A program made the position numbers and the translations under genes. This document shows, piece after piece, positions 14,987-28,301 of a stretch of 28,301 bases of DNA (the first letter of the stretch is position 1; each line of letters opens with the position of its first letter). The notes beneath the pieces are model-generated. The model searched no databases and was not told the DNA's origin. It saw only the letters and a list, made by a program, of their open reading frames with translations. Source of the stretch: an uncultured Anaerolinea sp. (GTDB lineage: Bacteria; Chloroflexota; Anaerolineae; Anaerolineales; Anaerolineaceae); NCBI GenBank assembly GCA_964461605.1, contig CAYWVP010000001.1, positions 10,878 to 39,178 on the forward strand, read 5' to 3'.

Positions 14987-15874
14987 ATGGAAAACGATCA
15001 TACGAACGCGACGATCACAACAAAAGAAGGTGACCTTGTGCAACTGGTTGGGCTCAGCCACAAGTCATTTATCATCACTTTACAATGTGGTGCAGTTTTT
15101 CATTCACACCGCGGGTTATTGAATCACGATGATCTTATCGGTAAAGTTTGGGGTACTCAGGTATTGAGCCACAACGGAAGTCCCTTTTTTATCCTTCAAC
15201 CATCGTTGACTGATATTCTTCGCCATACTAAACGTACTACGCAGATCATGTATCCCAAGGAGATCGGATACATTCTCTTATACATGGGGATTGGACCCGG
15301 ATCACAAGTGATCGAAGCAGGAACAGGGAGTGGATCATTTACCACCGCGCTGGCGCATGCGGTTGGAGAACGGGGTCGTGTGTTTTCTTATGAGGTAAAG
15401 GAAGCTAACCAGGCGGCAGCCAAGAAGACCCTACAGAAATTGAATTTACAGGATAGAGTTGATTTCAATGTCCGTGATATTTCTGAGGGATTTAATGAGC
15501 AAAACGTGGATGGGGTCTTTCTGGATGTGTCGAATCCATATGATTACCTGCGGCAGGTGCGAGAGGCATTAAAACCAGGCGGACATTTTGGCTGCATCGT
15601 CCCAACGACCAATCAGGTGATGCAGGTGCTGGTCGCTTTACGCCGCAATGATTTTGCGTTTGTGGAAGTTTGTGATGTCTCGGTGCGTTTCTACAAAACG
15701 GAACCGACCCGCTTCAGACCTACGGATCGCATGATTTCTCACACGGGATACCTGATGTTCGCCCGACCTGTAACAATTGAGCGGGGACAGGGAGATTTGA
15801 AACTCCTGCAGGAAATTGGTTTGATCAGCAAGTTGGATAACGAACCAATTGATCTCGATGAGGATTCGGAATGA
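14987..15874 (+). CDS. trmI: tRNA (adenine58-N1)-methyltransferase TrmI (GCD14 family)
   Basis: HSHRGLLNHDDLIG, RTTQIMYPKE, VIEAGTGSG, FLDVSNP, and RPTDRMISHTGYL. Confidence 0.9.
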   Translation: MENDHTNATITTKEGDLVQLVGLSHKSFIITLQCGAVFHSHRGLLNHDDLIGKVWGTQVLSHNGSPFFILQPSLTDILRHTKRTTQIMYPKEIGYILLYMGIGPGSQVIEAGTGSGSFTTALAHAVGERGRVFSYEVKEANQAAAKKTLQKLNLQDRVDFNVRDISEGFNEQNVDGVFLDVSNPYDYLRQVREALKPGGHFGCIVPTTNQVMQVLVALRRNDFAFVEVCDVSVRFYKTEPTRFRPTDRMISHTGYLMFARPVTIERGQGDLKLLQEIGLISKLDNEPIDLDEDSE

Positions 15875-16449
15875 GTGACGCGCACTTTTCACTAGAAACC
15901 AGGATTCACAATGCTTTACGTAAAAATCATCCCGGATTTGATGGGGATATCAGCCCCCGCGTTCCTGCAGCCGTGTTGATCCCATTTGTCCACACAAATG
16001 ATGAGTGGCATTTGCTTTTTACAAAAAGAACCAATGGTGTTGCGACACACCGGGGTGAGATCTCGTTTCCAGGCGGCGCAGCAGAAGATGAAGACAAGGA
16101 CTTGATCCAGACTGCCATCCGCGAAGCGTGTGAAGAGATCGGGTTATGCGAAGAGTCAATTCATGTGATTGGTGTAATGGAGCCAGTCCAGACAGTTTCC
16201 AACTATTGTGTTCTGCCTGTGATCGGCACTGTTAAATGGCCACAGAATCTGAGACTTAACCCGACTGAAGTGGAAAATACGCTTCTTATCCCGGTCAACT
16301 GGTTAAAACAGGATGAAAACTGGTATGTTCAGGATTTTTATTTTGCCCCCGGCCAATCAAAACCGGTATTGCATTACAGGGATTTTGATGGTGAACATCT
16401 ATGGGGAATTACTGCCGGGTTGGCTCAAAAAATTACCTCACTAATATAA
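15871..16449 (+). CDS. CoA pyrophosphatase-type NUDIX hydrolase
   Basis: AAVLIP, LLFTKR...HRGEISFPGG, TAIREACEEIG and LWGITA. Confidence 0.88.
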   Translation: MSDAHFSLETRIHNALRKNHPGFDGDISPRVPAAVLIPFVHTNDEWHLLFTKRTNGVATHRGEISFPGGAAEDEDKDLIQTAIREACEEIGLCEESIHVIGVMEPVQTVSNYCVLPVIGTVKWPQNLRLNPTEVENTLLIPVNWLKQDENWYVQDFYFAPGQSKPVLHYRDFDGEHLWGITAGLAQKITSLI

Positions 16450-16478
16450 AAACGAGCGGAGATTTTCCGCTCGTTTTT
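16448..16478. terminator. Bidirectional intrinsic terminator
   Basis: AAAAACGAGCGGA-GATTT-TCCGCTCGTTTTT between convergent genes. Confidence 0.85.
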
Positions 16479-16496: not shown

Positions 16497-17138
16497 CTAA
16501 TCTTCTTCCTCAGCTTCTTTCTTACCCTTCTCGATCACTTCAGGTTCAAGTCCTTCTCCAGCCACAACTACTTCTTCTTCCTCGCCGGCAGGTGAGGTTA
16601 TCAGGATCAGCATTTCGTCTTCAGGCGTGAGTACTTCCACATTAGCGGGGACTACCAGATCCTTCACCAGAATGGAATCGCCGATTTCCTTCAAGACAGA
16701 GATATCGAGGATAAACCTTTCGGGCAGATCTGTGGGCAGCGCTTCAACTTCGACGGAATTCAAACCATCCACCACCACACCGTTGAAGTCCTTCACTGCA
16801 GGCGCGATACCTGTGAACTCAATGTTCACGGCAGTGCGAATCTTTTCAGTCAGCGAAACTGCCTGAAAATCGATATGGATGAACCGGTTCCTTAGATAAT
16901 CACGCTGGCGTTCGCGCACAAGAGAAGCGATCTCTTTACCTTCGAGAGAAACGGTTACAATGCTGGATGAAGTCGCCTGGTTCAGAACACGGGTTGCTTC
17001 TTTGAGGTCCATGATGATGGCAGTGGGTTCAAACTTGTGTCCATAGATCACACCGGGAAGTTTTCCTTCACGCCTTAACACACCAACTTTCTTGCCAATA
17101 GTCGATCTTTTTTCTGCAGAAATTACCATTTTTTCCAT
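16497..17138 (-). CDS. rplY: 50S ribosomal protein L25, long CTC/TL5 type
   Basis: LRREGKLPGVIYG, IHIDFQAV, EVEALPTDLPE, IGDSILVKDL, acidic tail and EPEVIEKGKKE. Confidence 0.95.
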   Translation of the reverse strand: MEKMVISAEKRSTIGKKVGVLRREGKLPGVIYGHKFEPTAIIMDLKEATRVLNQATSSSIVTVSLEGKEIASLVRERQRDYLRNRFIHIDFQAVSLTEKIRTAVNIEFTGIAPAVKDFNGVVVDGLNSVEVEALPTDLPERFILDISVLKEIGDSILVKDLVVPANVEVLTPEDEMLILITSPAGEEEEVVVAGEGLEPEVIEKGKKEAEEED

Positions 17139-17151
17139 TTTATTATCCTTC

Positions 17152-17192
17152 GAGCGCCTCTCACCTGGTTTTATTACCGGTTACCATCGCTC
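17152..17192 (-). promoter_or_regulatory. Structured rplY 5' leader mimicking 5S rRNA loop E (candidate L25 autoregulatory element)
   Basis: mRNA GAGCG-AUGGUA-ACC-GGU-AAUAAA-ACC-A-GGU-GAGAGG-CGCUC: a symmetric 6x6 internal loop matching loop E, directly before the AAGGA SD. Confidence 0.7.
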
Positions 17193-17226
17193 TGATTAAA
17201 TTGTTTTGCCCGAATGGGCGGCTCAT

Positions 17227-17255
17227 ATTATAGGCTGCTAAATGGTTTAGGTCAA
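17227..17255 (-). promoter_or_regulatory. sigma70 promoter of rplY
   Basis: TTGACC (17255-17250), 17 bp, TATAAT (17232-17227); predicted start near 17220. Confidence 0.8.
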
Positions 17256-17284
17256 GGCATGGTTGGTTATGCCTGTATTTTTCT

Positions 17285-18781
17285 CTAGTTTACCCAATTT
17301 AATGTCTTTTCCACTGCTTTCTTCCATTTCGTATAGTACTGATTCCTGAGACCCTCTTCCATCTGAGGGATCCATTCCTTGTCTTTTTCCCAGTTCTGAA
17401 TGAGATCATCAGTATTTTTCCAAAAACCAACAGCCAAACCGGCGGCATAAGCAGCACCAAGAGCAGTGGTTTCAGTGATGCTTGGTCTCACAACCGGTAC
17501 ACCCAGGATGTCAGATTGGAACTGCATCAATAGATCGTTGACAACCATACCACCATCCACTTTCAAGGCGGTTAATCTTGTTTGAGAATCCAGCTGCATG
17601 GCATCCAACACTTCGCGGGTCTGATAGGCGGTGGCTTCAAGGGCAGCACGGGCTATGTGCCCCTTGTTGGCAAAACGTGTAAGGCCGGCAATGATTCCTC
17701 GCGCATCGGATCTCCAATGTGGTGCGAAAAGTCCTGAGAACGCCGGAACAAAGTAGACATCACCGTTGTCCTTTACCGTCCGGGCGAGAGGTTCGATGTC
17801 ACTGGATTTATCGATGATCTGCAGGTTATCACGCAGCCACTGTACCAGCGCTCCAGCCATTGCGATGGAGCCTTCAAGACAATAAACCGCTGGCTCATTT
17901 TGTAATTTGTAACCCACAGTCGTGAGAAGACCATTTTGGCTGAGCACCGGCGAGGATCCAGTATTCAGCAGCATAAAACAACCGGTACCGTAAGTGTTTT
18001 TTGCTTCTCCAGGTTGAAAACAACATTGTCCGAATAACGCCGCCTGCTGGTCACCCAGGTCGCCGGAAATGGGAACCCTGGGCAGTAAAACGGAGGTGTG
18101 TCCGTAAACTTCCGAGCTGGAACAGATCCTTGGTAAGATCGTGGAAGGAATATCGAGTAAATGCATCAATTCCTCATCCCATTTCAGGGATTCCAGGTTC
18201 ATCAACATGGTACGCGAGGCGTTGGTCACGTCGGTAACATGGATTCCTCCCTGAACACCGCCAGTAAGATTCCATATCAACCAAGTATCGATGTTCCCGA
18301 ACAGAATATCTCCTTTTTCTGCCTGCTCCCTCAAGAGCGGATCACTATCCAGTAACCATTTGATCTTTGGACCAGAAAAATATGTGGACAGGGGCAAACC
18401 TGCCTTTTTTTGATAAATCTCACGAGCGCCTCTTTTTTCAAGTGAATTACAGATCTCTGCAGTTCGTGTGTCCTGCCATACGATCGCTTTTCCACAAGGC
18501 AATCCAGTGTAACGATTCCATAGAACAGTGGTCTCCCGTTGATTGGTTATGCCTATGGCAGATATTTCATCGCCCGAAAGACCTGAGATTCGTAGAGAAT
18601 TAATTACAATATCCCGAGTGTTGTTCCAGATTTCCATGGCATCATGTTCAACCAGACCTGGTGCAGGGTAATACTGCTTATGTTCTTTCTGATCAACAGC
18701 CACGATTTCGCCTTTGTGATCAAACACGATGAAACGGGTGCTGGTTGTACCCTGATCAATGGCAGCTACAAAATTTCCCAT
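17285..18781 (-). CDS. glpK: Glycerol kinase
   Basis: [59 protein letters not shown] and VDGG. Start set at ATG 18781 with a GGAGG RBS. Confidence 0.95.
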
Positions 18782-27977: not shown

Positions 27978-28039
27978 GACTGCTCCGACAGAACGAACCA
28001 ATCCGAATATTGTAAGATTTGCTATAGGAGGCAAAAGAA

Positions 28040-28252
28040 ATGTCAGAACGTATCGTCGGTACAGTCAAATGGTTCAACGGAACCAAAGGTTATGGTTTCA
28101 TCTCCCGTGAGGGTGGAGAGGACGTTTTCGTCCACTTCTCTGCTATTCAGGGCGACGGTTATCGCAACCTTGAAGAAGGTCAGAAGGTCGAATTCGCGAT
28201 CGAAAAAGGACCCAAGGGCCTTCAGGCCAGCAACGTGGTCGTAGTTAGCTAG
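28040..28252 (+). CDS. csp: Cold-shock protein (CspA family)
   Basis: GTVKWFN, RNP1 KGYGFI, RNP2 VFVHF and [10 protein letters not shown]; AGGAGG RBS at 28026-28031. Confidence 0.96.
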
Positions 28253-28272
28253 TTACACCCGTATGCACATTC

Positions 28273-28301
28273 AAATCCCGCCGTGATGGCGGGATTTTTT
28301 T
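28273..28301 (+). terminator. Intrinsic terminator of csp
   Basis: AAATCCCGCC-GTGAT-GGCGGGATTT followed by a T run. Confidence 0.9.

Follow-up and report, generated by a model that had tools for sequence, protein, structure and literature searches.

Autogenous control of bL25 has been described in Escherichia coli, where L25 represses the translation of its own mRNA through an element in the rplY 5′ UTR (Aseev, Bylinkina & Boni 2015; PMC4408793). This bears out, for E. coli, the remark in a first-pass annotation of the DNA studied here that L25 autoregulation is known in Gammaproteobacteria. The hairpin of the E. coli L25 leader is unlike loop E of 5S rRNA, according to its discoverers (PMC4408793). 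A 2024 review confines the features of the E. coli-type operator to species with a short bL25, that is, a short one-domain L25 and a weak GAGA Shine-Dalgarno (SD) sequence (PMC10931766), and a 2020 survey of ribosomal leaders reports L25 leaders in Enterobacteria/Gammaproteobacteria only (PMC7247131). Mimicry of rRNA sites is described for the leaders of L20, S15, L4 and S6:S18 (cited in PMC4408793; surveyed in PMC7247131). In full-text searches we found no published loop-E-like rplY leader, in keeping with the novelty that the first-pass annotation had suspected, and no published ribosomal leader in Anaerolineae.

Here we analysed a stretch of 28,301 nucleotides from an uncultured Anaerolinea sp. 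(the window), in which rplY is preceded by a hairpin resembling loop E. Judged from its sequence and predicted fold, the element is a new structural class of an already known kind of regulator. It resembles the L20, S15, L4 and S6:S18 leaders in being an apparent lineage-restricted 5′ UTR mimic, adjoining the ribosome-binding site (RBS), of the rRNA site of a primary or secondary binding protein, and differs from them in that the protein is bL25 and the copied site is 5S loop E.

A search of the whole window at gathering level, and of 16900-17400 at E ≤ 10, returned no match to the E. coli-type leader family RF03131 of Rfam 15 (gathering score 34.1 bits), while the same family model detects the E. 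coli rplY leader, our positive control, at 46.9 bits; no Rfam family covers the element. Conversely, the model that we built from the leaders of relatives (R1, see below) has no match at the E. coli rplY locus. The two leaders share their layout: each is a 5′ UTR hairpin of a monocistronic rplY, placed shortly before the RBS, and each carries a conserved GAGAG-type sequence near it. However, the 26-nt RF03131 hairpin shows no sequence or structure homology to the window leader. Furthermore, E. coli combines a short one-domain L25 with a weak GAGA SD, whereas here a 213-aa two-domain L25 follows the SD AAGGA, or GAGGAAGG in relatives; the window rplY has neither the short L25 nor the GAGA SD of RF03131 members. 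The RT-17 motif (RF03020) matched over its full length but weakly (17.3 bits, E = 1.2); we rejected this match because RT motifs accompany reverse transcriptase genes, because the matches elsewhere in the genome are at chance level only, and because none exceeds the cut-off in control genomes.

The rplY gene and its leader

The rplY gene lies on the minus strand at 16497-17138, with its ATG at 17138, and encodes a two-domain bL25/Ctc protein of 213 aa that scores 129 bits against TIGR00731 (cut-off 73). In Thermus thermophilus TL5, the residues R19, Y29, H85 and D87, together with R10, form what we take to be the conserved solvent-shielded RNA-binding set, which reportedly goes back to the work of Gongadze et al. 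in 2005. The window protein aligns with TL5 over its full length and in both domains (PDB 1FEU, the chain of the TL5-5S rRNA complex, and ribosome entries), and its R22, Y32, H88 and D90 fall in the columns of TL5 R19, Y29, H85 and D87, respectively.

The gene is transcribed alone, as a monocistronic unit. On one side glpK ends at 17285 and on the other lies a convergent Nudix gene on the plus strand. Directly from the sequence we read an intrinsic terminator for rplY at 16448-16474 (minus strand), made up of a 9-bp stem with a U-run behind it, which is absent from the list produced by the pattern scan. This terminator is bidirectional and shared with the Nudix/CoA pyrophosphatase gene (15871-16449), from which it separates rplY. 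A further hairpin, AGGCAUAACCAACCAUGCCU, is found at 17255-17274, right after the glpK stop, where it overlaps the rplY −35 box; in the pattern scan it is terminator-like on the plus strand only. At the extreme end of the window (28001-28301, plus strand), Rfam places the cspA thermoregulator RF01766 with 92 bits against a gathering score of 78, a family described from enterobacterial cspA and matched here in a Chloroflexota metagenome-assembled genome (MAG).

Upstream of rplY, on the minus strand, a sigma-70-type promoter at 17227-17255 has the −35 box TTGACC (17255-17250), a 17-nt spacer and the −10 box TATAAT (17232-17227), matching at 11 of 12 positions, and predicts a transcription start near 17220. 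The leader opens with a 5′-terminal hairpin, GCCC-AUUC-GGGC (17208-17219), which is probably a stabiliser of the mRNA 5′ end, and an A-rich single-stranded linker (17193-17207) joins it to the loop-E-like hairpin at 17152-17192. The latter consists of a P1 stem (GAGCG, 17192-17188, with CGCUC, 17156-17152), a 6x6 internal loop (AUGGUA, 17187-17182, opposite GAGAGG, 17162-17157), a P2 stem (ACC, 17181-17179, with GGU, 17165-17163) and a variable cap (17178-17166). One nucleotide (G) past the hairpin follows the SD AAGGA (17146-17150), 7 nt ahead of the ATG. The minimum-free-energy fold of the 87-nt leader reproduces this structure exactly (−22.2 kcal/mol, z = −2.5; 2 of 200 shuffled sequences are equally stable) and leaves the SD unsequestered by the hairpin. 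The pattern GATGGTA-N(6-36)-GAGAG occurs once in the window, compared with 0.05 occurrences expected by chance. The first-pass annotation had read from the letters the promoter, the small hairpin at the leader start, the 5-bp stem with its AUGGUA/GAGAGG loop and capped stem, and the single nucleotide between hairpin and AAGGA, and all of these are borne out at the positions given above.

In all 20 of the same-genus genomes with an L25 match, a TTGAC-N17/18-TAnAAT promoter occupies the equivalent position. At 6-10 nt past the −10 box, members of the genus have a small hairpin whose stem, compared by eye and without a count, appears to covary (GGCUC/GAGCC, GCCG/CGGU, GCCUCC/GGAGGU). This arrangement fits a transcript starting just before the 5′ hairpin; promoter and 5′ hairpin lie upstream of the motif in all 20 genomes, as they should if the start site does not fall downstream of the loop-E-like hairpin, a point that the first-pass annotation had raised. 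In four public RNA libraries, contigs cover only 16505-17203 within a 1.2-kb stretch; these contigs are directionless and may derive from DNA. One of them, 109 nt long with a single mismatch and likewise of possible DNA origin, runs from 17095 to 17203, across the hairpin and the SD and into the beginning of the coding sequence. The contigs end near 16505, by the rplY terminator, and in the four libraries none covers the promoter or glpK and none extends beyond 17243.

Conservation, covariation and distribution

To compare leaders across species we used the rplY loci of 30 relatives, picked by protein alone. In 29 of the 30, GAGCGA-N-GGUAAC, a variable cap and GUGAGAGGCGCUC stand immediately ahead of the SD, which reads GAAGGA, GAGGAAGG or GGGAGAG at the equivalent position. 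The 29 leaders constitute model R1, and 99 leaders matched and aligned to R1 make up alignment A2. Both P1 and P2 were recovered by RNAalifold run unguided. In A2, 90.8% of the cells are standard-paired, a share that drops to 30-49% once the 3′ partner is displaced by 1-3 columns, double-sided changes occupy 169 cells against 58.7 ± 5.5 in shuffled alignments, and the covariation score was reached by none of 500 shuffles. P1 takes forms such as GAGCG/CGCUC, GAGUG/CACUC, GGAUG/CGUCC, GGAACG/CGUUCC and GGGGCG/CGCCCC, and the first P2 pair at the top of the loop (the equivalent of 79-97) alternates between A-U, G-C and U-A. The cap is 4 nt long at its shortest and holds inserted hairpins of about 40 nt at its longest, unlike loop D of 5S rRNA, which is a simple closing loop, and the distance from hairpin to SD stays at 0-2 nt. 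Like autogenous ribosomal protein leaders in general, the element is therefore a conserved, structured 5′ UTR element with covariation; both comparisons that the first-pass annotation had proposed, of rplY orthologs and of paired positions, came out in its favour, with the motif kept ahead of rplY across most families of Anaerolineales and both stems covarying.

R1 finds exactly one match per genome in 113 of the 150 other Anaerolineales genomes sampled, and thirteen families of the order have the motif in most members. Five families lack it (f3, f4, f13, f14 and f17): R1 has no match in f3, f13, f14 and f17 and a single spurious one in f4. Four of these five still encode a long L25. The f13 representative (L248, G036:C313), which is without the leader motif, seemingly has only a short L25 made of the N-terminal domain, in a 97-aa frame.

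Beyond the order, R1 gave no credible match in 146 genomes of other Anaerolineae orders and no match in 137 other Chloroflexota genomes. The weak matches at L045 (another order) and L243 (family f4) are spurious, as neither adjoins L25. Inspection of 24 rplY loci of other Chloroflexota and of five loci from f3, f4, f13, f14 and f17, with filters off and by eye, revealed no motif. In one Chloroflexota genome outside Anaerolineae (L258), CUGAUGGUAAC occurs about 110 nt upstream of rplY without a GAGAG partner strand, probably by chance. In one genome bin, a second L25 gene at the start of a contig (L249, G029:C620:1-978) carries GGGUGAGAGGCGCUCC, the 3′ portion of the motif, ahead of its SD; the gene is a true duplicate or else stems from a second strain within the bin.

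We also ran the strict pattern GCGARGGTAAC-N(4-32)-GTGAGAGGCGC on a collection with one genome per species, about 185,000 species in all. At least 117 stretches matched, and among the matches listed 116 of 117 lie 9-24 nt upstream of an L25 start. Carriers among these listed matches include Leptolinea sp. HRD-7, Thermanaerothrix solaris and MAGs labelled Anaerolinea, Bellilinea, Longilinea and Brevefilum. The one exception, labelled ‘Lachnospiraceae’ (L093), is a chance match inside a 941-aa open reading frame (ORF), uvrA-like by eye on a partial translation, and a second pattern match in the genome of the window itself (C12:382-418) is likewise due to chance, being within an ORF and without a P1 stem.

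A match labelled ‘Candidatus Latescibacteria’ (L103) would have added a second phylum, and we rejected it as a mis-binned Anaerolineales-like contig. This bin (G455) holds two L25 genes, L103/L282 (C6) and L287 (C7); the one on a 411-kb contig has an Anaerolineales-type leader, and the other, which lacks the motif, is like the L25 genes found in relatives of the bin. No motif was found in 12 relatives of the bin. Because of the second, native-type L25 and these 12 motif-free relatives, the bin appears chimeric. Among the genomes searched, the element is restricted to most of Anaerolineales.

Comparison with loop E of 5S rRNA

The strands CGAUGGUA and GAGAG of the leader are identical to those of E. 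coli loop E in the sequence printed for PDB 1DFU. No 5S rRNA gene (RF00001) was found in the draft genome of the window, which is 81.5% complete, and RF00001 has no match in the window, so that the leader does not score as 5S rRNA. For the comparison with the organism's own 5S rRNA that the first-pass annotation had called for, we therefore turned to four Anaerolineales 5S rRNAs, three from genomes of the same family and one from a further genome of the order. These four share the loop E strands GAUGGUA/GAGAGUA, in the contexts ...C(C/U)GAUGGUACUUGG... and ...CC(U/C)GGGAGAGUA(A/G)G..., and have the canonical bacterial loop E of the E. coli 1DFU fragment.

In overall shape the leader is like 5S loop E with helices IV and V (PDB 1DFU, 1FEU), with a stem, a symmetric purine-rich internal loop, a second stem and a cap, and the bases corresponding to G72, A73, (U74), G75, G76, U77, A78, G98, A99, G100, A101 and G102 are in register. 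It differs in that the sequence of helix IV is uncopied and in that the leader is part of an mRNA. The window leader agrees with 5S at 12 of 14 loop E bases in register, and 11 of these 12 are at least 92% conserved among leaders. Across 98 leaders, the equivalents of G72, A73, G75, G76, A101 and G102 are each at 100%, G100 at 99%, A78 at 98%, A99 at 95%, U77 at 94% and G98 at 92%. The U74 equivalent varies (A 55%, G 33%, U 5%, C 3%), and the U of the window is a minority state. The match that the first-pass annotation had counted, 8 of 8 bases on one strand and 5 of 5 of GAGAG on the other, therefore holds against both E. coli and Anaerolineales 5S, but in its literal 8 of 8 form it is limited to this genome and a few kin, since U74 is unconserved.

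Bacterial loop E comprises seven consecutive non-Watson-Crick pairs, G72.A104, A73.U103, U74.G102, G75.A101, G76.G100, U77.A99 and A78.G98. Read from the sequence, five of the seven combinations are present in the window, namely the in-register U74-G102, G75-A101, G76-G100, U77-A99 and A78-G98 that had been noticed at first reading, and four of seven in the leader consensus, with 72-104 and 73-103 altered in both. At positions 103 and 104 the leaders have invariant G and C where 5S has U103 and A104, which would replace the lower pairs of loop E by A73.G103 and G72-C104; the lower third of loop E is uncopied. The conserved bases indicate that the upper sub-motif (A78.G98, U77.A99, G76.G100), the central G75.A101 and G102 are copied in register. 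The leader loop is best described as a putative partial mimic of loop E, again closed by A.G at both ends, and we infer that the two would be equivalent in three dimensions. At the level of sequence, the element thus shows the likeness to the rRNA site of the encoded protein that is expected of an autogenous ribosomal protein leader.

Family f2 departs from this picture. In its rows of A2 (L217, L224, L234, L236, L237, L244), the equivalents of U77.A99 and A78.G98 become U.U, A-U or G-C, while GA-N-GG/GAGGC is kept. The loss of the top non-canonical pairs in f2 indicates that GA-N-GG/GAGGC, and not the full mimic, is the universal core, and the f2 version of the operator would be either relaxed or re-tuned.

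That f2 loses part of the mimic and yet keeps the element would also be expected if the hairpin were an L25-independent mRNA element, such as a stabiliser, a ribosome standby site or a translational enhancer, whose likeness to loop E is coincidental or that of a generic stable purine-rich loop. Loop-E-like internal loops are common RNA building blocks, and the hairpin leaves the SD free. However, the element occurs once per genome and before rplY only, its invariant bases are those shared with the binding site of the protein encoded downstream, and mere stability does not demand loop bases conserved at 100%. Accordingly, we regard an L25-independent role as unlikely.

Proposed function and significance

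We consider it likely, and with good confidence, that excess bL25 binds the rRNA-mimic hairpin and blocks the access of ribosomes to the rplY mRNA. The autoregulation that the first-pass annotation had read into the leader is supported, as a prediction, by the comparative evidence. Under this hypothesis the leader would be an autoregulatory translational operator of a monocistronic rplY mRNA, with P1 standing in for helix V, the 6x6 loop for the central and upper parts of loop E, and P2 with its cap for helix IV and loop D, and with the loop pairs N74.G102, G75.A101, G76.G100, U77.A99 and A78.G98 reproduced. When bL25 is in excess over free 5S rRNA, its N-terminal domain would bind the mimic; once bound, the protein (23 kDa) would stand in the way of the 30S subunit or trap it, and less rplY mRNA would be translated. 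With the end of the hairpin only 0-2 nt from the SD, bound bL25 would be placed to block or trap the 30S subunit. The sequences show the structure of the element, its conservation and covariation, its place before rplY only and its identity with bases of the lineage's own loop E; the binding by bL25, the direction of regulation and its mode, be it competition or entrapment, are inferred. Studies by Lu and Steitz in 2000 and by Stoldt and colleagues in 1999 are said to have found that L25 reads mainly shape, that of the minor groove of loop E, which is widened, and that of the major groove of helix IV next to it. If recognition is by shape, substitutions in the leaders would be tolerated.

The same mimicry would be seen if binding of bL25 to the hairpin served not repression but activation, stabilisation of the mRNA or, through a holding site, the coupling of L25 to 5S rRNP assembly, and sequence cannot tell the direction of regulation. 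Against this, the validated bL25 leader represses, a hairpin abutting the SD has the usual geometry of an operator acting by competition or entrapment, and to our knowledge the other validated bacterial ribosomal protein leaders all act by repression. Non-repressive binding is, in our judgement, rather less likely still than an L25-independent role.

The least probable reading, which we regard as remote, is that the loop senses something else, such as Mg2+, polyamines, a small molecule or another protein. Loop E of 5S rRNA is stabilised by Mg2+ and binds polyamines (PMC1976436), and the loop bases of the leaders are highly conserved. Known riboswitch aptamers are, however, larger and more complex than this element, which is tied to one gene, whose product binds the copied rRNA site, and which has no match among Rfam riboswitches.

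Autoregulation of bL25 has so far been known only for the short E. coli-type protein, whose operator is unlike 5S rRNA. If our reading is true, the two-domain Ctc-type protein, which is widespread, would have in this element its first described L25 operator. The element would likewise be a textbook example of rRNA mimicry in Chloroflexota; our searches turned up no ribosomal leader described for this phylum. An autoregulatory leader is unsurprising in principle; this one is clean, experimentally tractable and informative on L25 recognition. With about 100 natural variants aligned (A2), the kept and the variable loop E bases are visible side by side, which makes the rules of L25 recognition directly testable. 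The element would also be a new family for Rfam and for annotating the genomes of Anaerolineales, an order abundant in digesters, sediments and wastewater.

We further put forward, tentatively and leaning slightly against it ourselves, the idea that loop E mimicry in rplY leaders arose independently in at least two phyla, Chloroflexota (Anaerolineales) and Bacteroidota (Bacteroidales), and that the Anaerolineales leaders, including those of f2, mark GA-N-GG/GAGG(C) and a flanking helix as the minimal determinant for bL25/Ctc. If true, these leaders would constitute a natural mutational map of the interface between L25 and 5S rRNA, and would explain how long Ctc-type L25 is kept in balance with 5S rRNA.
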